NCBI GenBank assembly: GCA_964553245.1
Contig: CAZKJM010000001.1
Span: 447,555 to 511,554, forward strand
From: an uncultured Gammaproteobacteria bacterium
GTDB lineage: Bacteria > Patescibacteriota > Microgenomatia > Levybacterales > UBA12049
Length of the DNA: 64,000 bases
Direction: 5' to 3'
Shown: piece after piece, positions 1,953 to 18,889 of the stretch
Position numbering within the stretch: position 1 is the stretch's first letter
Layout of the letters: the number at the start of each line of letters is the position of its first letter
Notes under the pieces: model-generated
Database searches by the model: none
What the model was told of the DNA's origin: nothing
Seen by the model: the letters and a program-made list of their open reading frames with translations, nothing else
Program-made: the position numbers and the translations under genes

Positions 1953-3877
1953 AGATTAGTTGGCGTGGTTGGGTTTCCTGTCTGTATTGGTTGTTGATCA
2001 GGAGTTATTTCCGGATTTAATTGTTGGGGAGTTTTGGCAAGCGGTGCTTCATCCGTTGGTTTTTCGCTTGATTCCGTTTCTGCCTGTTTTTGCATTTTTT
2101 CAAGCTCTTGAGGATTAGATGTAATTAGCGTGTGCTCAAAAGGAGCAGCAATTACTTTTATAGCAACGTGACTTTGTCCTGCAAAAAATAATCCTTCACC
2201 GATGTCTGCGGAAAGCAACAACTCCTTTTCTCCTTGAGAAAGATAAAATATTTGAGCAATATGGTCAATTTCGGTAGTGCTTTGCTTTAAAAGCACTTGA
2301 ATTGATGAATTGGATAAAACAGCTTTCCCGTAGTCTGTTGATAAAAAGTCCTGAACATCCTGCGTTGCTGTGGTAAGCGCAAGATAATATTTTCTTGATC
2401 TTTTGGCTATTCCATAAACAAACGAAGCTGAATCCTGATATTTCATTATGTACCAAGCTTCATCTAAGATAAGCAATCTCTTTTTAAGATTCTTTTTAAC
2501 TTTTGTCCAAACAAAGTCCAAAATTATATGCATTGCAACCGGTCTTAATTCTTCCTCCAGGGTTTTAATATTAAATACGGTAAAAGGATTCTTTATGTCA
2601 AAGTTAGATTGTTGATTAAATATGCCATTTAAGCTTCCTTTAATGAATTTTTCAAGTCTTAAGGCAAGTTCTCTTGCGGCAGGATCTTCCATTCCCAAAA
2701 GTACTTTGTATAAGTCCTCCATAAGTGGAGGTTGTTTTTTTTGAGTTGAAGGATCTGCGGTAATTCCTTTTTGTCTGTATGTTTCTACCAGAGCTCTATC
2801 AAGTATCGCGTCGTGGGCAGGATCAAGATTGCCCATAATTATTCTTAGCAAGCCGTGAAGAGATAATATTTTTAAGCCGAGTTCGTTTTCCCCTTCTTCG
2901 TAAAGACCAGAAAGATCAAAAGGATTAATTTTTACCGGCTCAGACGGAGTAAAAGAAACATGCTCCCCTCCTAATGTTTTTGTCAGCGCTTCGTATTCTC
3001 CTTCCGGATCAATAATTATTACTTCTGTGCCAAACATAAATTGTCGCATCGCTTCAAGCTTAATAAGATATGATTTTCCGGAACCTGATTTACCAAAAAC
3101 TACTTCATTTGCATTTTCCAGTGTGTATCGATCAAAAATAACTAGTGAACCGTTTTGTTCGTTGATGCCATACATTACTCCGCGATCCTGCGTTAAAGTA
3201 GCAGAGGTAAACGGAAAGGTAGAAGCAAGAGAAGTTGTGTCCATGTTTCTGGTTATGAATAATCTGTCTTGACCAATTGGAATTGTTGACTTAAACCCGT
3301 CTTCCATCTGAAGGGTAGCGGTTTTAGTAATCATCATAATGGAATTAAGTATTGAGTTTAGTCTTTTTGATGCTTCGCTAAGATCATCAAGATTATCCGA
3401 AGATAAAGTTATATACAAACTGAACTGGAAAAATCTTTCAACTCCTTTTGCAAGTTGCTCTTGTATTTCCAGTGCGTCATCAAGTGCTGCTCTTACTTTT
3501 GGATCAACAACTTTTCCCTCCTCGATTTCGGAGGAAATAGTCGCTTCCATTTCGGCAATTTTTCTTCTTAAATCTGCCAGAACATCGGAGGCAGAGGTTG
3601 GGTAAATAAACATTGATACATTCATTGAATGGTCAAAGTCAATTAAAGGCTGTAGCCAGTTTGGAGAAACATAACGTGGGTATCCTACTACAAAAAACGT
3701 ACGATAGTATAAATCTCCAACGCGGATATATTTAAAATCTACTTCAACCGATGGGGGAGCAATTACATCAACTAAAGAAACCATTCCTTTTTCAAGCTTT
3801 TTAATACCGGGACCTTTTGTGTTTTGCTGAACAGGGATTATTGGTTGTTGTTTTGTTTTCTTGCCAAATATTTTCAT
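1949..3877 (-). CDS. virB4: Type IV secretion ATPase, VirB4/TrbE/TraC family
   Basis: Walker A (VVFGKSGSGKSYLIKL) and the family-typical Walker B (LLILDEAWYIMK) are present. Length is 642 aa. Pilin and VirB6-like genes lie upstream in the same orientation. Confidence 0.85.
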   Translation of the reverse strand: MKIFGKKTKQQPIIPVQQNTKGPGIKKLEKGMVSLVDVIAPPSVEVDFKYIRVGDLYYRTFFVVGYPRYVSPNWLQPLIDFDHSMNVSMFIYPTSASDVLADLRRKIAEMEATISSEIEEGKVVDPKVRAALDDALEIQEQLAKGVERFFQFSLYITLSSDNLDDLSEASKRLNSILNSIMMITKTATLQMEDGFKSTIPIGQDRLFITRNMDTTSLASTFPFTSATLTQDRGVMYGINEQNGSLVIFDRYTLENANEVVFGKSGSGKSYLIKLEAMRQFMFGTEVIIIDPEGEYEALTKTLGGEHVSFTPSEPVKINPFDLSGLYEEGENELGLKILSLHGLLRIIMGNLDPAHDAILDRALVETYRQKGITADPSTQKKQPPLMEDLYKVLLGMEDPAARELALRLEKFIKGSLNGIFNQQSNFDIKNPFTVFNIKTLEEELRPVAMHIILDFVWTKVKKNLKKRLLILDEAWYIMKYQDSASFVYGIAKRSRKYYLALTTATQDVQDFLSTDYGKAVLSNSSIQVLLKQSTTEIDHIAQIFYLSQGEKELLLSADIGEGLFFAGQSHVAIKVIAAPFEHTLITSNPQELEKMQKQAETESSEKPTDEAPLAKTPQQLNPEITPDQQPIQTGNPTTPTNL

Positions 3878-8374: not shown

Positions 8375-9793
8375 TTAAGAAGTAAATTTAAGTCCCCGGC
8401 CTTTTACTGTTTGAAGATGCTTTGGATTATTTGGGTCATCTTCGATTTTTTTTCTGACCCGAAAAATAAGTTGATCCAAAGCCTGATCAGTTACTCCCGC
8501 TGTTGTTTGAGTATCCTTCCAAACAGCAGAAATTATTTCGTTTCTTTCTAAAATTTTTTCATGACTATCGATTAAAAATTTTAATAATCTAAATTCAAGA
8601 GTAGTGAGAGCATCGGATAAAACAATCTCACCTTTTTTAACTTGGTTTGTATTTTGATCGTAAATTATTTTATCCGAGGCGATTTTTATAAGCGCATTAT
8701 TTTTATCAAGAAACATTTCGAGTAGAGGAATTGAAATTTTCCCATTTTTTATTAAACCTATTTTTTCAAGTAGGTTAAGCTGTTCAAGATTAATCTTTTT
8801 AGCCATAGACTTTTGCTCAAACGGCGTTAAAAAACTCCAGATCTCAAAAAGACAGGCTTTAATTTGTTTTCTTTCTATTAAAAAATCAGCAATATTTTCT
8901 TTTGGAAAATCAGAGCTTGTTACAATTTCTGTAGCAAGTCTCGTAAGCTTACTGTGTCCTCCGGTAAGGCTAATTAATTTTTCAATTAATTCTTTTTTAA
9001 TTTTTTTACCCGAGACCTTTTCCAAATACGAAATTCTAAAATCCAGCCCGATTTTGTCTTTAATATTTAAATAGACAATTTTATCAGCAATAAATTCGTA
9101 AAACTGGTTTAATATTTCGGTAATTAAGGTTTCTTCAAGCGGTCTTGTCAGTGAAAATATTGAGGCAAAACGGTATTTAGCTTTATTTCTTAAAATTCTA
9201 AGATTTGCAAAAAACTCGCTTGAAATAACCGGGATGTACTCATCGAAACGATCAAATAAAAAAATAATCGACAATTTTTTTTCGATAGACAAGCAATCAA
9301 AAGCTTCTTTTAAACCCTGAAAAAGAACAAGTTCGTCGTTTAAGCTAAGATGTTCCTTAAAAATACGGTGAATTTCCCTATGTTCATTGATTAACTCTCT
9401 GTCTCTTAATGAATCGGCAAGAGACAAAAAAATATATTTATTTACGTCAAAAAGCGATCGGTTTTTAACCTCGGAAAAATTCATATAAACAAAATGAACA
9501 TTTTTTTGATTTTCTCCCAAATGCTTAACGCGGATTTTGTGATTATAGGCAAGCATCCTTAACAGATTTGATTTACCTGATCCAGGAAGACCAATTAATT
9601 GGCAGGAATTTCCCTCTTTTAGAAAATCTAAAATTTTCTGTATTTCTTCAAAACGGGAATCCTCAGGATAAAGGGATTCAAAATGAGTAAAACCATTATT
9701 GTTTGATTGTTTCATTGCAACACTATGGTAATTGTAAGTTTTTTGTAAGGAAAATATCAAGTTTAATAAGTTCTTAAGGATTAAAATCGCCAT
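8375..9793 (-). CDS. Transcriptional regulator with an N-terminal P-loop NTPase (AAA/STAND-like) fused to a C-terminal OmpR/PhoB-type winged helix
   Basis: Walker A is LIGLPGSGKSNLLRML. The C-terminus matches the trans_reg_C pattern (LTTLEFRLLKFLIDSHEKILERNEIISAVW…ALDQLIFRVRKKI…LQTVKGRGLKF). The annotated start at 9793 lies 4 bp from the divergent ORF start at 9797, so the internal Met at 9715 is a possible alternative start. Confidence 0.65.
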   Translation of the reverse strand: MAILILKNLLNLIFSLQKTYNYHSVAMKQSNNNGFTHFESLYPEDSRFEEIQKILDFLKEGNSCQLIGLPGSGKSNLLRMLAYNHKIRVKHLGENQKNVHFVYMNFSEVKNRSLFDVNKYIFLSLADSLRDRELINEHREIHRIFKEHLSLNDELVLFQGLKEAFDCLSIEKKLSIIFLFDRFDEYIPVISSEFFANLRILRNKAKYRFASIFSLTRPLEETLITEILNQFYEFIADKIVYLNIKDKIGLDFRISYLEKVSGKKIKKELIEKLISLTGGHSKLTRLATEIVTSSDFPKENIADFLIERKQIKACLFEIWSFLTPFEQKSMAKKINLEQLNLLEKIGLIKNGKISIPLLEMFLDKNNALIKIASDKIIYDQNTNQVKKGEIVLSDALTTLEFRLLKFLIDSHEKILERNEIISAVWKDTQTTAGVTDQALDQLIFRVRKKIEDDPNNPKHLQTVKGRGLKFTS

Positions 9794-9796
9794 AAT

Positions 9797-12499
9797 ATGA
9801 CAAAAGAATTTGAATTCCAGAAATTGACAAGCGAAGTTAATTTTTCTACACTCAAAGGTAGAAAGGTTATTTTTATGGAGAACTCAGAAACACCAAGGCC
9901 ACCTGAAGATAAGGGAATGGGTAAGAATGTGTTAGGCGGAGAAAATCCTGCTTCTTCAGAAGCTTCTGGAGTTAACGAAACAAGTGAACAAAGAGGAGAA
10001 GAGCTTCAAAGAAATCTTGCAAGGCTTGGTATAGGAAGCGAAGAGTTTGGAGATATTTCAGAAGAAGAGAGGTTGATGGCTCAAAGAGCACAACAAGAGT
10101 TTATAAGACAAGCAAGGGAGGGTCTTAGAGACAACATTTCCCCGCAGGAAAAACTAAAAAAAGAAGAAGAAAAAATCCTTAGCTTAGGATCAAGAGAAGA
10201 TCTTGATAAATTTTTAGTTTCAAAAGACAAGAATCTTTTGTTTTATCTTCTAGACGCAAAAAGATTAATAGAGAAAGGCGATTTTGCAATAGAAGACGAA
10301 AGAGCAAAGGAAAACTTTTTAAACGAATTAAATGAACTCATTGCGATGTCAAAAGGGGACAAATCAATAGTGGACGTCGATGATTATAAAAGAAGGGTTT
10401 CTGAAATTATTCATGGCAAAACTGATGCGGCTGGTAAAGAAAGCCTCGGCTTAATAGATTTATGTAAAAAACGCGAGCCCAGAGAAATGCACGGCGAAAT
10501 GCCTAAATGCCTTGAAGATCTTGCCGAATTAATCATGAGCTCGGAGGAAGATAAGTGGAGAAAAGACGGAGAAAGAGCGCTTATTAACGAAGAGGGAAGT
10601 GTAAATACGGAAAATTTATTAGCTTGGTTCAGGGACAGAATTATGTGGTTTCATGATTTTAATCCTGATTCGGAGATAAATTTGTTTAATCAAATCTCCG
10701 TGCCAACGCTGTACAGAACCTACTCATTTTCGGAAATGCTTGATAACAAAAGATATTTCTTAAAAAGAACAAAAAGGTTAGGAGAAGGAGAGTACGAACA
10801 TCATAGAAGCGAAGAATATGAAAAATTAAAAGACCATTTGCTTTACGAAGTTTGGTTGTTTAACACCTCGCATAATTATGACGTAAAATACCGCACTGTT
10901 ATGGGAATTGAATCTAAGGTTCCGGAGGTTTTAACAGAAATGTATTACACTAACGTTTTTACTAAGGATAGGAATAGACTTCTCAAGATTTTAAAGCTTC
11001 CTAAAATTGATCAGATAGAAGTAGGAAAGATTGTTAAGTCTAAAAATGGCGAGCAAGAAGGACAGGGAACAGTTGGAAGAGTCGTCAGAAGAGCTCTTCT
11101 TGCCTATTATTATCTTCCGGAGTTGGTTGCAGAAGATGATCAATTAGTAAATGGTGGGAATATGTTTGAAAAGTCACTCGGAGAAAATGGCTCGCTTGAA
11201 TTTTACGCTTCCCTTGTAAAACAGCTTGGTGGAGAAGTCCTAGACACAGGATCAATGGGTTTTAGAGACGCCAGAAATATTTTAAGAGAAAGAATAGCTG
11301 ATTTACTAGATAAAAAATATGGTCATAAATTTACCCAGCTAAATATTTTTGATGACGTAAATAAAGATAGAACGGTACTGCGTCTTATAAGAACTGCCTT
11401 AAGGGATGCGATTGCAAAGGTGGAAGGATTAGCAGATAAAAAAGGAAATCCGGACGAAAACGTTATCTATGGAGAGAACTGGGCAAATACAATGATTTAC
11501 TGGACAGGAATTTCTGCAAAAAACGATACTAATGCAATTGGTTTTGACGCGTGGACAAAAATAATGAGCGCAAAAGATTATAGAGTAAGACAAGCAGGAG
11601 CAAGAGGAATTTTTGGAGAAATGTACAATATTTATGGTTTAACAAGAATCGGATTAAATTTTTGGGAAGGAATTAAAGTAAGAAGAGAAGGAGACAGGGG
11701 TTTTAACTGCAATGTTTTGGAGGTTTTACAGGGTGGTCAAGGAAACGATATTAATCTTGATCGCGGAATAAGCGATTTTGATTTTCAGGATAATGCTCAA
11801 AGACAATTTGCGGCAAATCATATAAGAAATGCTTTTAGTTTTTTTGAATTTGTAATGAAAAAACACGGAATGAATTTTGACCAATTTTTATCTGTTGACG
11901 TATTCGGGAGAATAATTTTTGATCCAGGGAAAGCAGACGAAGTGTTTGATAAATTATGGAGCAAAGGACTTCGTTATACTTTTGATTTGCCGGATTTTTT
12001 TTGGGATCATGAGGTACGTGGTTGGTGGAGAGATAAAGATAAGGATGGTGAGGAGTGCGTATATTTTGGCTCAAAAAAACTAAGGGATTTAATGTTTAAC
12101 GAAGAACTAAATAATATGGGAATGTACGACAGAGAAAGATTTAAAGATCAAAAGAGTAAATTAGCAGCTCGCAATGTTTTTGCATACCTTATTGCTAAAG
12201 AATTATATGCGCATAGAGCATTTGATTCCAGATATAAAAGATACAGCGCAGAACAAATAATGGTAATAGAATCATATTTAAGAGGATACCCATTAGAAAT
12301 TGAAGAAACAGAAGGACACGAGGTTAAAATAAAAGATTACTTTTTCTCAAAAGAGGAATGGGAGCATGTTACAAAAATTTCTCATACACAATATAGTAAG
12401 ATGTTTATGGAAAATCTTGCGTTAACTGGAACCCAAGGAGCAATAGGCGGAGCCTTTTCAGGCATAAAACATTTTATTAAGGAACTAGTAAAATTCTAA
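9797..12499 (+). CDS. Hypothetical 900-aa soluble protein with no recognisable domain, embedded in the T4SS-like locus
   Basis: Long uninterrupted ORF with good coding character, no TM segments, an acidic/charged N-terminal ~250 aa and a Trp/Phe/Tyr-rich core. It is divergent from the regulator gene and convergent with the VirB6-like gene, overlapping it by 4 nt. The start may be a downstream Met (M26 or M41). Confidence 0.6.
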   Translation: MTKEFEFQKLTSEVNFSTLKGRKVIFMENSETPRPPEDKGMGKNVLGGENPASSEASGVNETSEQRGEELQRNLARLGIGSEEFGDISEEERLMAQRAQQEFIRQAREGLRDNISPQEKLKKEEEKILSLGSREDLDKFLVSKDKNLLFYLLDAKRLIEKGDFAIEDERAKENFLNELNELIAMSKGDKSIVDVDDYKRRVSEIIHGKTDAAGKESLGLIDLCKKREPREMHGEMPKCLEDLAELIMSSEEDKWRKDGERALINEEGSVNTENLLAWFRDRIMWFHDFNPDSEINLFNQISVPTLYRTYSFSEMLDNKRYFLKRTKRLGEGEYEHHRSEEYEKLKDHLLYEVWLFNTSHNYDVKYRTVMGIESKVPEVLTEMYYTNVFTKDRNRLLKILKLPKIDQIEVGKIVKSKNGEQEGQGTVGRVVRRALLAYYYLPELVAEDDQLVNGGNMFEKSLGENGSLEFYASLVKQLGGEVLDTGSMGFRDARNILRERIADLLDKKYGHKFTQLNIFDDVNKDRTVLRLIRTALRDAIAKVEGLADKKGNPDENVIYGENWANTMIYWTGISAKNDTNAIGFDAWTKIMSAKDYRVRQAGARGIFGEMYNIYGLTRIGLNFWEGIKVRREGDRGFNCNVLEVLQGGQGNDINLDRGISDFDFQDNAQRQFAANHIRNAFSFFEFVMKKHGMNFDQFLSVDVFGRIIFDPGKADEVFDKLWSKGLRYTFDLPDFFWDHEVRGWWRDKDKDGEECVYFGSKKLRDLMFNEELNNMGMYDRERFKDQKSKLAARNVFAYLIAKELYAHRAFDSRYKRYSAEQIMVIESYLRGYPLEIEETEGHEVKIKDYFFSKEEWEHVTKISHTQYSKMFMENLALTGTQGAIGGAFSGIKHFIKELVKF

Positions 12500-14196
12500 G
12501 ATTGTTTCCCCCAAGCCTTTTCTCCCCCAAGCCATTGTTTAGTGCCATCGGCCAATCGTTGTGCGATCTTAGAATTTTTATGGTTATCGGCATATTTTTG
12601 CGTAAGTCTAATAGGTAAGCTCCTAATAGGACCCGCTCCTCTAGTATAATCAGCAGGTCTTGTCAGTTGTTTCCAGCCGTAACCAGTTGGTTTTCCCAGC
12701 GTTGATGTTCCAACATGGAAGGCTTGACCGATTGGAGCCATCTCAAACTTTGGAGCCTTAAGCATTTTCTCTACCATAGTTGCAACATTCGGAGTTAATA
12801 AAATTATCCCCAGTCCTACAACTGCAGCTAATTGATCTGCATTTCCAACGTTACCTACCAACGGTGGGGTAAAAAAAGTATTTGCGCCGGTTGATTGAAT
12901 TGCATCTATAAAAACTTTTCCGAGCAAAAGCATGGCTACTACAGTAGGAAAAACAATTAACTTAGAGCCTATGCTTCTTAACCAGGAACCAAAACCGCGT
13001 TCGCTTCCCATAAACGGAATTATTCCTATAACAATAAATAAAGGGGACAGTACTATGTCTATGAGTATCCCAACATAAGTGAGCAAAAGCTTAAACCATA
13101 ACCTAAACATAGCAAAAGTTATAGCAACGGCAATAATTAAGAATGCAATTAGTTGACCAAGTCCTGCTAAAACCTTTTCTGCAAATCCAGCAGCAGTTAC
13201 AGCCCCTGCAATTCCACCGATAATACTACCGATAATTGGTATAGCAGATCCAGCAGCTACTCCTGCAGCAACAGACCCAGCCATCATAAGCATACCAAGT
13301 ATTCCTTGAAGTATTTTACCTGGACCAGTTTCGAGCATTGATTGTATAAATGTTCCTATGGCACCCGCAGCTTGCCATGACATACTAACGAAGTTTACAT
13401 TTTTATCGAAATAAATTGGAGCTTGATAATTTACTTGGTTTGCTATTTCAAGTTTAATTTGGGGATCAGCATTTGCAAACAAGTTTATTATTAAATATGT
13501 CGCAACCCACATTAAGTCTATTAGGAATCCGGCAATTGCAAACGAAAAAGTTACTAAAATGATTCCGATAATCATTTTAGGAATTTGATTTTGAATAGTC
13601 ATTACGGTACGCGGATCAATTTTTACACGTAACATTATTGCAAGTCCAACAAGAATAAAAACAAGCACAAAAACTATATAAATCATATTTCTAAAAGCAG
13701 CCCACGCGTTCATTAGTGGATTTAATTGTTGAAAACCGGTTGTTTGTGCAAGCGCTGGTTTTGCAATCCCAAAATTCTGAGCTAGATAATTTACATATTC
13801 AAAACTATGCGCAGGAATATTAAAAGTCATTGTAATCAAATTGTTTAAAACACCGATTACTCCTCCTCCGCCAATTTGTCCGGGTTCTGCAGCGGGTACG
13901 AATCCGATTTTTCCGGTTTTTGGATCTACGCCCAAGCATTGATGATTTTGACTGATTGGGTCATATCCGGTTAACTGACAAGCAACAGTTGCCATTAATT
14001 CTATAAACACATTTTGAGTATAGGTGTGCAGGTTTTGGGGAACATCGGGATTATTTACGGGAGCGGTGTAGCTATTCTGAGCAAAGGAAGATTTACTTAA
14101 GTTAAATAAGAAAATCAGTACAAGAAAAAAAACGGTTATTAACCGGGCAGCGAATCTCATTAATATTAGTTTGAAGTATTTTAATTGGTGTGTCAA
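12496..14196 (-). CDS. Polytopic membrane protein, VirB6/TrbL-like T4SS inner-membrane component
   Basis: A signal-like N-terminus (MRFAARLITVFFLVLIFLFNLSKSSFA, alternative start 14160) precedes a ~130-aa extracytoplasmic region. This is followed by at least six hydrophobic helices with Gly/Ala-rich stretches, as in TrbL/VirB6. Genomic context is the VirB4/pilin locus. Confidence 0.5.
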   Translation of the reverse strand: MTHQLKYFKLILMRFAARLITVFFLVLIFLFNLSKSSFAQNSYTAPVNNPDVPQNLHTYTQNVFIELMATVACQLTGYDPISQNHQCLGVDPKTGKIGFVPAAEPGQIGGGGVIGVLNNLITMTFNIPAHSFEYVNYLAQNFGIAKPALAQTTGFQQLNPLMNAWAAFRNMIYIVFVLVFILVGLAIMLRVKIDPRTVMTIQNQIPKMIIGIILVTFSFAIAGFLIDLMWVATYLIINLFANADPQIKLEIANQVNYQAPIYFDKNVNFVSMSWQAAGAIGTFIQSMLETGPGKILQGILGMLMMAGSVAAGVAAGSAIPIIGSIIGGIAGAVTAAGFAEKVLAGLGQLIAFLIIAVAITFAMFRLWFKLLLTYVGILIDIVLSPLFIVIGIIPFMGSERGFGSWLRSIGSKLIVFPTVVAMLLLGKVFIDAIQSTGANTFFTPPLVGNVGNADQLAAVVGLGIILLTPNVATMVEKMLKAPKFEMAPIGQAFHVGTSTLGKPTGYGWKQLTRPADYTRGAGPIRSLPIRLTQKYADNHKNSKIAQRLADGTKQWLGGEKAWGKQS

Positions 14197-14228: not shown

Positions 14229-14315
14229 GGAGGGATCGCATAGAGGCCTAGTGCGTTCGCTTGGAGAGCGGATGTCGTCGTGAGATGACCGGGAGTTCGA
14301 ATCTCCCTCCCTCCG
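14229..14315 (+). tRNA. tRNA-Ser(GGA), type II with long variable arm
   Basis: Acceptor GGAGGGA/TCCCTCC, 3-bp D-stem, anticodon stem TTCGC/GCGGA with loop TTGGAGA, an 18-nt variable arm and T-arm GGGAG-TTCGAAT-CTCCC. The track ORF at 14102-14374 is an artefact over it. Confidence 0.8.
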
Positions 14316-14390
14316 CCTTCACCCGCCGAAGCCAGAATGGCGAAGGCGGGCTTCGATCGGGTTTCAGCGGACACAGTCCGCCATAATGAG

Positions 14391-14819
14391 TTATGAGTTA
14401 TGAGTTATGAGTTGTTTTGCTTCCTCCCAAACCTTTTTATCTGATTTGTAAGTTAATTTTTTTTCCACTTTTTCCACAGAAAGCCATTCAACGCTTTCCA
14501 TTTCTTTATCTTTTAAGCTTAAATCCTCAGTTAAATATTCCATTAAAAAATAATAAACGGTTTTCTTGATTTTTTGTTTTTCAAAAACATACCAATACTC
14601 AACCGGATTTAATGATTTTAGAATTTTGGCGTTAATACCTGTTTCTTCCAAAACTTCTCTTATTGCTGTGTCTTCTTTTTTTTCTTTTTCAATCTTATCT
14701 CCGATTAATCCCTTTGGAAAAACCCAGCCGTGATGTTGTGAATGCTGGCACACTAGAATTAAAAGTTTATTTTTTTCTTTTTTAAAGACTATGCCACCGG
14801 CAGAAAATTCAAATTTCAT
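14391..14819 (-). CDS. NUDIX hydrolase
   Basis: Nudix box GX5EX7REVLEETGI present (…KGLIGDKIEKEKKEDTAIREVLEETGINAKI). Overlaps the upstream GIY-YIG gene by 4 nt (ATGA). Confidence 0.7.
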   Translation of the reverse strand: MKFEFSAGGIVFKKEKNKLLILVCQHSQHHGWVFPKGLIGDKIEKEKKEDTAIREVLEETGINAKILKSLNPVEYWYVFEKQKIKKTVYYFLMEYLTEDLSLKDKEMESVEWLSVEKVEKKLTYKSDKKVWEEAKQLITHNS

Positions 14820-15058
14820 AATGGAAATAAATGTTTTTTTAAGAAAGCCCTTCCAGAACCAGATTTAAGGTATTTCTCAAAATTAAAAGCGGTATATTTA
14901 TCTATGAACGCAAAATAAGAGATCAGTCTTATTGGACGTAGTAATTTAGTTGCAGGTACATGTCCTTTTTTATGCCTTTCTATTCTTTCTTCCAAATTGC
15001 TTGTACAACCCGTATATGGTTTGCCGTTTTTACATTTTAAAAAATATACAAAAAACAT
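14816..15058 (-). CDS. Small stand-alone GIY-YIG domain protein (~80 aa)
   Basis: The GIY-YIG-like motif is MFFVYFLKCKNGKPYTGCTSNLEERIERHKKG. The track ORF (14816-15259) is over-extended across two tRNA genes. The real start is probably the Met at 15058, with AAGGAG 9 nt upstream. Confidence 0.6.
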   Translation of the reverse strand: MFFVYFLKCKNGKPYTGCTSNLEERIERHKKGHVPATKLLRPIRLISYFAFIDKYTAFNFEKYLKSGSGRAFLKKHLFPL

Positions 15059-15122
15059 ACTAATTTCTCCTTCGCGAACTACTAAGCGGATGTTATCCGC
15101 CGTAGCTCGCTTCGGCGAGCGA

Positions 15123-15212
15123 TGGCGGAGGAGAGAGGATTCGAACCTCTGTGAGCCGTAAAGCCCGCTCGGTTTTCGAGACCGGCCAAATAAACCACTC
15201 TTGCACTCCTCC
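15123..15212 (-). tRNA. tRNA-Ser(CGA), type II
   Basis: Reverse complement gives acceptor GGAGGAG/CTCCTCC, 3-bp D-stem CAA/TTG, anticodon loop CTCGAAA (one C·A mismatch at the stem top), a long variable arm, T-arm AGAGG-TTCGAAT-CCTCT and an encoded CCA. Confidence 0.65.
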
Positions 15213-15217
15213 ATAAG

Positions 15218-15290
15218 CGCTCTTGGGGAGAATCGAACTCCCAGCCTAAGCGTCCGCAACGCTTCGCTCTATCCGTTGAGCTACAAGAGC
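15218..15290 (-). tRNA. tRNA-Arg(GCG)
   Basis: Reverse complement GCTCTTG-TA-GCTC-AACGGATA-GAGC-G-AAGCG-TTGCGGA-CGCTT-AGGCT-GGGAG-TTCGATT-CTCCC-CAAGAGC-G. Every stem pairs perfectly and the anticodon is GCG. Confidence 0.75.
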
Positions 15291-15297
15291 CCGTTAC

Positions 15298-15346
15298 CGC
15301 TTCGCTCTATCCGTTGACCCCGATTAAATCGGGGTTGAACTACAGG
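15298..15346 (-). repeat. Truncated 5' copy of tRNA-Arg (5' acceptor strand, D-arm and 5' anticodon stem) interrupted by a 17-nt hairpin, upstream of the intact tRNA-Arg
   Basis: The 19-nt stretch gcttcgctctatccgttga occurs at 15261-15279 and again at 15299-15317. The second copy is followed by ccccgattaaatcgggg flanked by a ttga duplication, then actacagg, which is the D-stem region. It ends exactly at the anticodon stem/loop boundary. Confidence 0.55.
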
Positions 15347-15361
15347 CACAGATTAGCAAGT

Positions 15362-15375
15362 AGTATATAGCAAAT
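15362..15375 (-). promoter_or_regulatory. Putative extended -10 promoter (TGCTATATACT on the - strand) for the tRNA-Arg / tRNA-Ser(CGA) transcript
   Basis: The 14-mer agtatatagcaaat also occurs at 16266-16279, upstream of the other minus-strand tRNA pair. It resembles the TGCTATACT element upstream of three other genes. Confidence 0.4.
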
Positions 15376-16062: not shown

Positions 16063-16152
16063 TGGCGGAGAGGGTGGGATTCGAACCCACGTTCACCAAT
16101 TGGCGAAAGCGGTTTTCAAGACCGCCGCACTAGGCCTCTATGCGACCTCTCC
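16063..16152 (-). tRNA. tRNA-Ser(TGA), type II
   Basis: Reverse complement gives GGAGAGG…, D-stem GCA/TGC, anticodon stem GCGGT/ACCGC with loop CTTGAAA, a long variable arm, T-arm and an encoded CCA. Confidence 0.8.
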
Positions 16153-16157
16153 TAGGG

Positions 16158-16247
16158 CGGAGGAGGTGAGATTCGAACTCACGCGAGCTTATTCAGCTCA
16201 GGGGGTTAGCAACCCCCCGCAATGGACCGTGCTATGCGACTCCTCCT
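16158..16247 (-). tRNA. tRNA-Ser(GCT), type II
   Basis: Reverse complement gives GGAGGAG-TC-GCA…, anticodon stem GGGGG/CCCCC with loop TTGCTAA, a long variable arm and T-arm GTGAG-TTCGAAT-CTCAC. The track ORF 16049-16267 is an artefact over the two tRNAs. Confidence 0.8.
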
Positions 16248-16265
16248 TTTTAGCAATTAGCCAAT

Positions 16266-16279
16266 AGTATATAGCAAAT
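16266..16279 (-). promoter_or_regulatory. Putative extended -10 promoter for the tRNA-Ser(GCT)-tRNA-Ser(TGA) pair
   Basis: Same 14-mer as at 15362-15375. It reads TGCTATATACT on the - strand about 20 nt upstream of the tRNA 5' end. Confidence 0.4.
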
Positions 16280-17645: not shown

Positions 17646-17918
17646 TTAAATTAATCGTTTGTTTCGAAAAGCAAAACCAGAATTAGTTTTAAGATATTTT
17701 TCAAAGTCAAGCGCCTTTTCCTTCGAAGAAAAGGATGCGTAAAATACGAGCTTAAATGGTCTAAGATTTTTTGTTGACGATACCATTCCATTTTGATGGT
17801 TTTTTAAGCGCGCTTTTAAATTAGATGTTGAGCCATGGTAAAAAGATTTATCTTTTAATTGGATAATGTAAGCAAAATACACAAATTCAGAATACCAAAA
17901 AATGCCCCACTTCGCCAA
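17646..17918 (-). CDS. Small stand-alone GIY-YIG domain protein (~90 aa), paralogue of 14816-15058
   Basis: The motif FVYFAYIIQLKDKSFYHGSTSNLKARLKNHQNG… aligns with the other copy (…KYLKSGSG/KYLKTNSG…). It lies immediately downstream of the tmRNA. Confidence 0.6.
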   Translation of the reverse strand: MAKWGIFWYSEFVYFAYIIQLKDKSFYHGSTSNLKARLKNHQNGMVSSTKNLRPFKLVFYASFSSKEKALDFEKYLKTNSGFAFRNKRLI

Positions 17919-17998
17919 CTAATTTGTTTAAACTCCGTGATTTAAAGAGGCTTCGTTTGGGGCACTCTTCTCAAACCATGTCATGCACTTATTTTTTA

Positions 17999-18038
17999 GA
18001 AGTGTGGTTTACCACTTCGTAGCTCCGATAAGATCGGA
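17999..18038 (-). other. Two stable hairpins just 3' of the tmRNA (GAAGTG-8nt-CACTTC and CTCCGAT-AAG-ATCGGAG)
   Basis: Perfect inverted repeats were read directly. On the - strand they are followed by an A-tract, not a U-tract, so they are not canonical intrinsic terminators. Confidence 0.4.
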
Positions 18039-18046
18039 GTGAAGAG

Positions 18047-18412
18047 TGGAGATGTCGAGCTATGAACTCGAGTCCAAGAAATTCGTTAAAAAACATCTAC
18101 AAGCTTATTCGATTTTTTAAATTTCGCTTTATTCTTATCCAATCGAAAGGAAAAAATAAAGTTAAGATTAAATAAATTCTATAAGGACCTAATCAACTTC
18201 CTTATTATTTCCCAAACTGTGTTTATGCCTAGATAATCCCGTTTAGGAAAAGATTAAATAGACAGTCTTTTAGTTATATGCGTATAAAGGCATATATGCC
18301 AATTGACTTCTAGAATTACTTCTAGCATTTATTTTTTGACTAGTTTAAAGACATTTAGTCGTTGTCTGCTTGCAGTTTTTAAAGTGCTTTCCTGTCGATG
18401 CAATGCATCCCC
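18047..18412 (-). ncRNA. ssrA: tmRNA (ssrA), ~366 nt
   Basis: The - strand 5' end is GGGGATGCATTGCATCGACAGG, matching the conserved GGGGNUG…UCGACNGG. The 3' end is T-arm TCGAG-TTCATAG-CTCGA followed directly by CATCTCC-A. That acceptor pairs with the 5' GGGGATG, including the G3·U wobble. It lies immediately downstream of smpB. The tag-peptide frame was not resolved by eye. Confidence 0.7.
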
Positions 18413-18448
18413 ATTGAACAGGAATTATACCACTTTGAAGCTAAAGAG

Positions 18449-18889
18449 TCAAATTTTACCCCTCAATTCTTCTTCTATTTCTCGATTTAAATCCCGTCTT
18501 TTTATGGCTTCTTTTTTCTCGTATTTTTTCTTTCCCTTACCAAGTCCAAGCTCAACTTTTATAAAACCGTGCTTAATGTACATTGAAACAGGCACAATTG
18601 CAAGATTTTGTCCATCAGTTTTGCCTTTTAAGGCTGTGATTTCTGCTTTGTGAAGCAAAAGCTTTCTTGTTCTTGCCTGATCATAATCTTTAAGACTTGC
18701 GTATTCATATGGAAAAATTTTAGCATTAACTAAGTATGCTTCGCTTCCTTGAATCTTGACAAAGCTTCCTGTTAAATCCGCATGCCCATTTTTAACTGCT
18801 TTTACTTCATAGCCATACAAGTTTATTCCGGCTTCAATCCGGTCTTGAAGTGAATAATCATAGTTAGCGCGCTTATTAAGAATTCTCAT
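18449..18889 (-). CDS. smpB: SsrA-binding protein SmpB
   Basis: Conserved SmpB sequence (NKRANYDY…GYEVKAVK…LLLHK…) followed by a basic C-terminal tail. Confidence 0.85.
   Translation of the reverse strand: MRILNKRANYDYSLQDRIEAGINLYGYEVKAVKNGHADLTGSFVKIQGSEAYLVNAKIFPYEYASLKDYDQARTRKLLLHKAEITALKGKTDGQNLAIVPVSMYIKHGFIKVELGLGKGKKKYEKKEAIKRRDLNREIEEELRGKI

Follow-up and report, generated by a model that had tools for sequence, protein, structure and literature searches.

We analysed a 64,000-nt stretch of DNA, hereafter the window (GenBank assembly GCA_964553245.1, contig CAZKJM010000001.1, positions 447,555 to 511,554; 34.5% G+C), from a Levybacterales genome deposited as an uncultured Gammaproteobacteria bacterium, and focused on its only two GIY-YIG genes, GIY1 and GIY2, each of which lies behind a stable-RNA gene on the same strand. 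GIY1 (14816-15058, minus strand) encodes a stand-alone protein of 80 amino acids (aa) and starts 64 nt downstream of tRNA-Ser(cga) (15123-15212, minus; ARAGORN and Rfam), which is preceded by tRNA-Arg(gcg) (15217-15290, minus; ARAGORN, Rfam tRNA 67.7 bits). GIY2 follows 161 nt downstream of the transfer-messenger RNA (tmRNA) gene ssrA (18044-18412, minus; Rfam RF00023, 97.4 bits). The minus-strand order is smpB, tmRNA, GIY2, a comF-like gene (on the opposite strand), a histidine phosphatase gene, tRNA-Ser(gct), tRNA-Ser(tga), a 190-aa open reading frame (ORF), tRNA-Arg(gcg), tRNA-Ser(cga), GIY1 and a Nudix hydrolase gene, and tRNA-Ser(gga) on the plus strand is convergent to these. The space between each RNA gene and its GIY gene is taken up by a structured leader, at 15059-15122 (minus) for GIY1, directly abutting the tRNA 3' end (...CTCCGCCA), and at 17883-18043 (minus) for GIY2. 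A sequence-only reading of this stretch had already noticed the two paralogous ORFs, their position beside stable-RNA genes and the ATGA overlap of the first with the Nudix gene, and all three observations stand; the conserved leader structure was absent from it.

Both proteins scored well above the cutoff of the Pfam GIY-YIG profile (PF01541; 48.3 bits and E = 1.3e-12 for GIY1, 57.3 bits and E = 2e-15 for GIY2, cutoff 22.6 bits), a check of the motif that had been set beforehand, and they are 47% identical to each other (E = 7e-24). GIY2 had been read as a 90-aa ORF with a TTG start (17646-17918). The gene is real, whereas its start is probably the GTG at 17882, giving 78 aa (17646-17882, minus), because the Pfam domain begins only at residue 14, homologues begin M-Y-Y-V-Y where GIY2 has this GTG, and the TTG at 17918 falls within a leader hairpin. 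Across 27 aligned sequences including both window proteins, Y5, Y15, R25, H29 and E61 are invariant and no invariant or nearly invariant Asn follows E61, and the subfamily alignment holds 19 invariant columns. The copies from bacteria of the candidate phyla radiation (CPR) and from Bacteroidota are 60-67% identical, and a highly conserved C-terminal tail, FEKYLKSGSGRAF-KKH, is specific to the subfamily. The protein stops about 19 residues past the catalytic Glu and has no tethered DNA-binding domain of the kind that marks homing endonucleases. A profile search of 1.84 billion cluster representatives returned 2,667 clusters (50% identity) at E <= 1e-10, almost all of 63-140 aa. The window itself has the look of a Patescibacteria (CPR) genome of Microgenomates type, and the closest homologues come from Levy-, Roizman-, Gottesman- and Beckwithbacteria.

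We further compared the two proteins with known GIY-YIG structures and lineages. Searched as a single sequence, GIY1 matched PDB 1zg2 (E = 7e-9), and the family profile ranked 1zg2 (3e-13) and 1ywl (2e-6) ahead of eukaryotic SLX1 (4e-3), with T4 EndoII (0.11) and I-TevI (0.25) marginal. The AlphaFold2 model of GIY1 (mean predicted local distance difference test score 90.4; secondary-structure elements E-E-H-H-E-H-H) has the three-stranded sheet with flanking helices that is typical of the superfamily and gave the same ranking in Foldseek, with UPF0213 and Slx1 proteins as best matches, the UvrC N-terminal domain also matched and I-TevI at E of about 1. Against the intron endonuclease family TIGR01453 the two proteins reached 20.2 and 16.3 bits, below its cutoff of 56. 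Prokaryotic Slx1-like proteins have been defined as stand-alone minimal domains without a conserved C-terminal Asn (PMC1564403). The profile and fold comparisons, together with the lack of a conserved C-terminal Asn, therefore place both proteins in the Slx1/UPF0213 lineage and not in the I-TevI/Seg homing-endonuclease lineage, and the proposal that they are homing-endonuclease remnants is not sustained. The Slx1-like fold is that of a structure-specific endonuclease, and nuclease activity is predicted for the family. Gene boundaries deserve attention here as well: the longest ORF through GIY1 (14816-15259, minus) has 147 aa and crosses the leader and tRNA-Ser, the public gene call on a contig with an identical Nudix protein has 132 aa (L081, 2606-3004), and many family representatives bear 20-60 unmatched N-terminal residues. 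Over-extension by gene callers into the GC-rich leader or the tRNA seems common, which is of practical value for annotation.

The linkage to stable-RNA genes was surveyed in 79 genome loci (given L numbers below) with homologues of 57-76% identity, covering many CPR classes and Bacteroidota, with tRNAs annotated by ARAGORN and tmRNAs by Rfam. Of 84 full-length copies with enough upstream sequence, 74 are preceded by a tRNA or tmRNA of the same orientation whose end is no more than 300 nt away (tRNA-Ser in 56). Control ORFs of 100 aa or longer from these loci show this in 61 of 1607 cases (3.8%; odds ratio 188, Fisher's test, P = 7e-80). The expected enrichment of homologues beside tRNA and tmRNA genes is thus present, and the placement is sharper than had been proposed: downstream, on the same strand and mostly behind tRNA-Ser. 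By a second measure, 58 of 95 hidden Markov model hits lie within 500 nt downstream of a co-oriented tRNA-Ser, most exceptions being contig ends. Almost all copies follow a tRNA of the same orientation at a distance of 65-270 nt, in the great majority tRNA-Ser, whatever its anticodon, and a few stand instead behind tRNA-Trp, Asp, Val, Arg or Met; divergent copies that ARAGORN left unexplained lie 57-199 nt behind tmRNAs detected by Rfam only. The unit begins exactly at the mature 3' end of the RNA gene. Empty tRNA-Ser genes end ...CCGC(C)A and run into AT-rich sequence, whereas occupied ones read ...CCGCC/TTCGC or ...CCGC/TTTCAC across the junction, most commonly ...TCCGCC/TTCGC. We describe it as a cassette of about 0.3-0.45 kb, composed of a GC-rich leader of about 60 nt (longer and modular in some) and a 78-80-aa GIY-YIG gene, which is widespread in CPR bacteria and Bacteroidota. 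The searchable literature yielded no description of this association of tRNA or tmRNA, leader and GIY-YIG gene.

RNA-gene calling in these genomes showed some peculiarities of its own. ARAGORN missed the window tmRNA and found none of 10 further CPR and Bacteroidota tmRNAs (loci L006-L063), all of which Rfam detected (88-145 bits including the window). It also called several tRNA-Ser genes 'Ser(act)' and one tRNA 'SeC(tca)', which look like misread class II anticodon loops.

The leader of GIY1 folds into one rod-like hairpin, composed of an outer stem S1 (CTCGCC/GGAGAA), a 3x3 GAA/GAA internal loop, an inner stem S2+S3 (GCGAGCUAC/GUAGUUCGC) and an apical stem P2 (GGCGGAU/AUCCGC(U)); the Shine-Dalgarno sequence AAGGAG, which precedes the ATG by 8 nt, lies within the 3' strand of S1. 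Its minimum free energy is -28.7 kcal/mol (z = -4.86; 0 of 200 shuffles equally stable). Spacers of other copies nearly all open with TTCG right after ...TCCGCC and have 55-70% GC in genomes of about 35%. When short spacers were folded singly, 23 of 25 gave one extended rod-like hairpin (2 folded otherwise). Its outer and inner stems, of about 6 and about 10 bp, are separated by a 3x3 loop that is mostly GAA/GAA, its apical stem has 5-7 bp, and the energies span -25.5 to -43 kcal/mol. A covariance model, R1, matched the GIY1 leader (15063-15124, 62 bits, E = 2e-15) and recovered 34 full-length copies at E < 1e-8, on the sense strand only (41-71 bits, versus at most 28 antisense). In the alignment of these 34 copies, 83.6% of cells pair, a figure that falls to 31-49% once partners are slid; compensatory (both-side) changes occur at 12 of the 22 pairs, and none of 500 shuffles reached the covariation score. 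This alignment was fitted to R1; an unfitted MAFFT alignment gave 82% versus 33-48%. RNAalifold, given both the MAFFT and the model-fitted alignments, recovered only the apical stem because the arms differ by 1-2-nt indels, and the full structure was derived from single-sequence folds and the counting of named pairs. Moreover, the sense strand folds more stably than the antisense strand in 32 of 36 copies, and the stems hold 47 G-U pairs versus about 3 A-C mismatches, which argues for selection on one strand. No Rfam family exceeded its threshold on the leader in the window or the other loci, and we regard the leader as a new candidate structured RNA with clear covariation.

Longer spacers contain the same modules in tandem. 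Those linked to tmRNA comprise TTCG, a covarying first hairpin, CUACG, an apical-type hairpin and a GAAGC...GCGAAG hairpin just before the start codon. In the window, the tmRNA-type leader holds hairpin H1 (CUCCGAU/AUCGGAG, 18023-18039), CUACG, hairpin P2 (GAAGUGG/CCACaCUUC, 17999-18018) and a long hairpin (17897-17970) with the GAAGC...GCGAAG module; the H1/P2 design recurs with compensatory changes behind 8 other Microgenomates tmRNAs, 2 of which lack the ORF. A leader-module copy without ORF stands behind tRNA-Ser(gga) (14229-14317, plus; ARAGORN and Rfam). This trailer (14318-14385, plus; -29 kcal/mol; R1 match at 14317-14352, 28 bits) has a hairpin CCCGCC-GAA-GCCA..UGGC-GAA-GGCGGG (14322-14350) and a P2 hairpin GCGGAC-aca-GUCCGC (14367-14381), and runs into the 3' end of the convergent Nudix gene. 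In Bacteroidota loci L034, L048, L063, L075 and L076 (about 9570-10400), tandem short GAA/GAA hairpins, such as CGCCCGCCGAAGC-UUUA-GCGAAGGCGGGC, flank the GIY ORF on both sides and resemble a local repeat family.

The final 5-6 nt of the host tRNA recur in the apical stem, whose 5' arm is complementary to them. Behind tRNA-Ser genes, which end ...TCCGCC, the stem is GCG(N)GA/TCCGC in 39 of 58 copies, while behind tRNA-Trp (4 of 4) and the tRNA called SeC (1 of 1), all ending ...CCCGCC, it is GCGGG/CCCGC; this T/C association between apical stem and host end is significant (Fisher's test, P = 5e-6), and ends of another class match in about 1% of cases. The stem behind tRNA-Arg(tct) (...GGGCAC) is GUGC/GCAC, and one of the tRNA-Asp copies has GGCGGUC/GACCGCC, matching ...GACCGCC, with the other retaining the tRNA-Ser type. 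For the tmRNA class the evidence is weaker, with only a 4-nt core in agreement (GUGG/CCAC versus ...CUCCAC), and a k-mer test at 5-mer stringency did not support this class. A strict apical-hairpin search caught only half of the cases owing to a 1-nt bulge, and GC content confounded a duplex-energy test of pairing between hairpin and target. One reading of this match, which we consider doubtful, is that the cassette is a minimal mobile element of a new kind whose leader hairpin does the targeting, with the apical stem directing a bare Slx1-type nuclease to RNA-gene 3' ends. The apex would then pair with the host-end sequence in single-stranded DNA or a transcript, and changes of a few hairpin bases would retarget the cassette among tRNA-Ser, tRNA-Trp and tmRNA ends.

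We next examined the occupancy of conserved sites. Microgenomates loci share a backbone of tmRNA, then Ser(gct) and Ser(tga), then Arg(gcg) and Ser(cga), then Arg(ccg) and finally Ser(gga), on which the high-scoring GIY copy stands behind cga (window and L064), tga (L006, L027 and L039), gga (L009), gct (L013, L022, L023 and L040) or both gct and tga (L030). The tRNA-Ser(gct) and tRNA-Ser(tga) sites of the window (16156-16246 and 16063-16152, both minus; ARAGORN) are empty, the latter ending ...CCGCCA before AT-rich sequence, whereas a cassette lies between or behind them in L006, L013, L022, L027, L030 and L039. The spacing of the two genes is 1-21 nt when empty (window, where it is 3 nt, L018 and L006), and in L013, L022 and L030 exactly one cassette fills it, leaving 11-12 nt after the stop codon in L022 and L030 and 52 nt in L013. 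A single backbone thus carries both occupied and empty tRNA-Ser genes, a presence/absence polymorphism at a conserved site. The nearest protein neighbour has the same anticodon in 9 of 53 cases (14.2 +/- 3.5 by chance), and protein pairs of 86-90% identity are found behind different isoacceptors; the absence of anticodon grouping and the near-identical pairs at different sites argue against four ancient paralogues with differential loss.

Incomplete copies were also found. Hairpins without an ORF stand behind 10 tRNA-Ser genes, among them the window trailer and those of L013, L023, L040, L064 and the metagenome loci L128 and L162; a pattern scan of metagenomes returned mostly high-GC chance matches, with true trailers at 12 of 80 loci. 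Truncated ORFs occur in L004, L039, L075, L130 and L161, two tmRNAs keep the first leader modules with no ORF, and orphan copies without a full tRNA retain 6-19 nt of a tRNA 3' end before TTCG (L017, L018, L031, L071, L116 and L161). Moreover, a locus-specific direct repeat, 11-22 nt long, of the stretch between T-loop and tRNA 3' end is present within 160 nt after the stop codon at 9 of 66 loci versus 1.4% of cross-locus pairs (P = 4e-7). Behind this repeat, L036 and L061 have another hairpin of older date, which looks like a stacking of insertions. The mobile history suggested by the sequence-only reading is thus supported by variable occupancy, near-identical proteins at different isoacceptors, ORF-less and orphan cassettes and repeats, from which we infer that the cassette is apparently mobile. 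A distinct observation concerns L023 (9769-9895), L041 (9859-9925) and L042 (9819-9915), where an extra insertion of 60-125 nt lies within the 3' part of tRNA-Ser and duplicates the tRNA 3' end (e.g., AATCCCACCTCCTCCGCC), with GGATGAGAAGTTTAYCCTGAGCGA common to L041 and L042. This is a second, ORF-less small element on the same spot, which displaces the GIY cassette downstream.

Taking the evidence together, we lean towards the reading that these units are stable-RNA 3'-end cassettes, co-transcribed with the RNA gene and probably spread by their own nuclease. In the window, the stretches between RNA gene and ORF are free of promoter-like and terminator-like sites, the GIY1 spacer being filled by the hairpin, and the only strong promoter-like sites of the region are upstream of the tmRNA and of tRNA-Ser(gga); the region's best (TTGACT-17-TATAAT with TG, 18424-18452, minus) lies just upstream of the tmRNA. 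Because of this lack of an internal promoter and the hairpin-filled spacer, the cassette would be transcribed from the tRNA or tmRNA promoter, and tRNA-Arg(gcg) presumably heads a transcription unit of tRNA-Arg, tRNA-Ser, leader, GIY1 and Nudix. The hairpin may separate, release or protect the tRNA and the mRNA, and may mask the AAGGAG ribosome-binding site. The nuclease may promote spread into empty tRNA-Ser or tmRNA 3' ends by cleaving the DNA at or close to the segment between T-loop and 3' end, after which the cassette would be copied from an occupied site or an excised copy would integrate. Such a homing-like or integrative life style would leave the RNA gene intact, and the repeat of that segment would mark recent insertions.

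Several observations weigh against this spread by the cassette's own nuclease. The direct repeats are limited to about 14% of loci and are absent in the window and most loci, a test for T-loop remnants directly behind the stop codon gave no significant result, and no insertion or excision event was caught: two other contigs with an identical Nudix protein have the same arrangement, with neither gain nor loss of a cassette. The family is essentially absent from viral contigs and plasmids, mobile endonucleases are not known in the Slx1/UPF0213 lineage, and the protein is an 80-aa catalytic domain without a DNA-binding module. Copies within one genome are seldom each other's closest relatives, and strong protein conservation and a syntenic tmRNA-linked clade fit a host function. 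Finally, the selected leader strand acts as RNA or as single-stranded DNA, two states that the sense bias cannot separate.

The main rival, which we consider possible but distinctly less likely, is host housekeeping, with an Slx1-like nuclease held behind highly transcribed stable-RNA genes for co-expression. Its task there might be the resolution of hairpins, R-loops or stalled forks, or its substrate might be RNA; on this view the leader would serve cis-regulation and processing, and the variable placement would be a product of ordinary rearrangement and loss. Such a role accords with the strong conservation of a protein that is often retained in 2-3 copies in very small genomes, with the stable synteny of the tmRNA-linked clade, with the selection of structure on the sense strand and a Shine-Dalgarno sequence inside a stem, and with fusions of bacterial Slx1-like domains to a TrmH-like tRNA methyltransferase, which have been read as a hint of RNA metabolism (PMC1564403). 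It accounts less well for occupancy that shifts among four tRNA-Ser genes on a fixed backbone, for the highly similar proteins at different sites without anticodon clustering, and for the ORF-less hairpins, truncated ORFs, direct repeats on the flanks and orphans that bear a stub of a tRNA end; the ORF is, moreover, missing from many tRNA-Ser genes and from two tmRNAs of the same lineages.

It is improbable, in our judgement, that the hairpin is the normal 3' trailer of tRNA-Ser, a terminator or processing signal behind which an unrelated small gene is tolerated. The GIY-less hairpins behind tRNA-Ser in the window and in L013, L023, L040, L064, L128 and L162 are what such a trailer would look like, but the hairpin accompanies the ORF to tRNA-Trp, tRNA-Asp, tRNA-Arg and tmRNA, with its apical stem adapted to each, and also precedes orphan ORFs without a full tRNA. 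Both hairpin and ORF are missing behind about 40 tRNA-Ser genes of these loci, and non-Ser tRNAs have a leader match behind them only where a GIY ORF lies downstream. We consider it very improbable that the cassettes are decayed stubs of integrase-borne islands or prophages, which commonly enter and duplicate tRNA-Ser and tmRNA 3' ends. The repeats flanking some cassettes are a classic integration signature, and the small insertions of L023, L041 and L042 also carry a duplicated tRNA 3' end; yet the same unit of hairpin and GIY-YIG gene, about 0.35 kb, is found at over 80 loci in two phyla, in some cases fitting between two tRNAs with just 3-12 nt left over, and has no integrase inside, no PHROGs or PADLOC matches and practically no copies in viral contigs. 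Chance adjacency in a compact genome could have been entertained from the window alone, which offers two cases in a region of clustered tRNA genes. Given rates of 88% for the copies and 3.8% for control ORFs from these loci (P = 7e-80), a constant strand and distance and a conserved junction, its probability is practically nil, and we regard it as already refuted.

The two window genes appear to have separate histories. GIY1 belongs to a large, relocating family linked to tRNA-Ser. GIY2 falls, in a neighbour-joining tree, into a clade of seven Microgenomates tmRNA-linked copies and one copy behind tRNA-Arg(tct), and its counterparts lie 78-199 nt behind the tmRNA in L006, L022, L027, L030, L033, L039 and L040. 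This clade keeps its place in synteny, looks vertically inherited and may be domesticated. The tmRNA-linked copy of Ferruginibacter groups in the same type of tree with other Bacteroidota copies whatever their target; the tmRNA association arose independently there, and targets therefore switch within lineages. A recent duplication yielding GIY1 and GIY2 is rejected: the tRNA-Ser-linked clade of the one and the Microgenomates tmRNA-linked clade of the other are separate, and both have counterparts at corresponding positions in related genomes.

The Nudix gene (14391-14819, minus; Pfam NUDIX E = 5e-20) is a backbone neighbour outside the cassette. The overlap of its start with the GIY1 stop (ATGA) is read directly from the sequence and recurs in the two contigs that encode an identical Nudix protein, that is, in the window lineage only. 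Nudix homologues in L009, L022, L044, L064 and L071 adjoin the same tRNA cluster without overlap, and in L064 a tRNA-Arg(ccg) stands between GIY and Nudix genes. The pairing of Nudix and GIY1 as a functional unit is accordingly rejected, and the overlap is incidental, a local outcome of tight packing. The Nudix protein matches the PADLOC candidate-defence model PDC-S07 (E = 1e-9), and its best NCBIfam matches are MutT-like, far below cutoffs.

Among known systems, the closest in protein terms is UPF0213 (COG2827; BH0048, PDB 1zg2; EF2693, PDB 1ywl), which is likewise a minimal GIY-YIG protein of 80-100 aa without an auxiliary domain, lacks the C-terminal Asn and gives the best sequence, profile and fold match. 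The window family differs by its FEKYLKSGSGRAF-KKH tail, its structured leader and its linkage to tRNA and tmRNA 3' ends; no report of such a 3'-end and leader context for UPF0213 was found in the literature. Seg proteins and I-TevI resemble the cassette in being GIY-YIG genes between conserved genes, polymorphic for presence, targeted to an adjacent conserved gene and without an essential host role. SegB lies in the T4 tRNA gene cluster, and I-TevI is autoregulated through binding to a sequence that mimics its homing site, to which the leader's target copy may be a parallel. However, these proteins have 200-250 aa and DNA-binding domains and belong to the UvrC/homing-endonuclease lineage, and Seg genes are borne by T-even phages, whereas the window family resides on bacterial chromosomes. 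Integrase-borne islands and prophages use the same targets, leave the RNA gene intact and, as in some of our loci, displace a repeat to the far side; the cassette differs by its size of about 0.35 kb, by having repeats at only about 14% of loci and by lacking an integrase or recombinase, the GIY ORF being the sole gene between the tRNA and the next backbone gene or tRNA.

IS200/IS605 elements, REP/RAYT systems and integron attC sites share with the cassette a strand-specific imperfect hairpin at the element end abutting a short fixed target, and IS200/IS605 guides may also be alike in that an internal sequence complementary to the target changes with it; in the cassette this is seen in the tRNA-Ser, tRNA-Trp and tRNA-Arg cases, whereas the tmRNA match is confined to a 4-nt core. 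In contrast, the cassette enzyme is GIY-YIG and not HUH or tyrosine, no regular right-end hairpin is present, and the sole ORF being GIY-YIG, the cassette has neither an HUH (Y1) transposase nor TnpB. For the leader, the only Rfam family touching it is RF02980 (freshwater-2), a cis-regulatory candidate from freshwater metagenomes, whose consensus has two GC-rich hairpins (ucccgc...gcggga and gcgg...ccgc), AAGGAGA and AUG and resembles the window leader but is without its long-range stems. RF02980 scored 20.2 bits on that leader, below its gathering score of 49.9, and gave no match at E <= 1 in 11 other loci and none at the gathering score in 19 loci; this is resemblance, not membership. GIY-YIG ORFs not associated with group I or II introns have been described in CPR rRNA-gene insertions (PMC11270868). 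These are also small GIY-YIG ORFs in or near CPR stable-RNA genes, but they lie inside rRNA genes; together with the freshwater-2 motif they are the nearest published hints.

Other features of the region are recorded here. The backbone gene smpB (18449-18889, minus; Pfam SmpB E = 5e-48) lies upstream of the tmRNA. Directly upstream of tRNA-Arg(gcg), 15291-15345 (minus) is a partial copy of a tRNA 5' half (GCCTGTAGTTCAA..CGGATAGAGCGAAGCGG) with its D-loop broken by a small hairpin (CCCCGATTTAATCGGGG); it may be a tRNA remnant, perhaps from the tRNA-Arg(ccg) that relatives have here and the window lacks. A near-identical 24-mer, ATTTGCTATATACTAYTKGCTAAT, precedes both tRNA clusters (about 15352-15375 and about 16255-16279, both minus) and is probably a shared tRNA-operon promoter, which was absent from the list of a simple sigma-70 scan. 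Two long ORFs, one of 900 aa (9797-12499, plus) and a hydrophobic, Gly/Ala-rich one of 566 aa (12496-14196, minus) that ends just before tRNA-Ser(gga), have no Pfam match. The metagenome-assembled genomes (MAGs) of L006, L007, L013, L022, L027, L039, L041 and L042 share gene order and the tRNA/tmRNA backbone with Microgenomates-type CPR loci, and the 'uncultured Gammaproteobacteria' labels of these eight are probably wrong. The CPR-like MAG contig of L017 carries a LOOT RNA (RF03000, 72.9 bits) at 2849-2966 (minus), and a GIY cassette lies about 7 kb away.

If correct, the preferred reading would provide a genomic logic for a small protein that ranks among the commonest unexplained ones in CPR/Patescibacteria and Bacteroidota, as part of a cassette that lives at stable-RNA 3' ends without breaking those genes. 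The Slx1/UPF0213 branch of GIY-YIG nucleases would also gain its first mobile or semi-mobile role, in an unusually small self-contained element of about 0.35 kb. The match between hairpin apex and tRNA 3' end offers a testable hypothesis for how target choice is encoded; were the doubtful guide reading true, it would mean a guide logic as in IS200/IS605 but with an 80-residue GIY-YIG enzyme.

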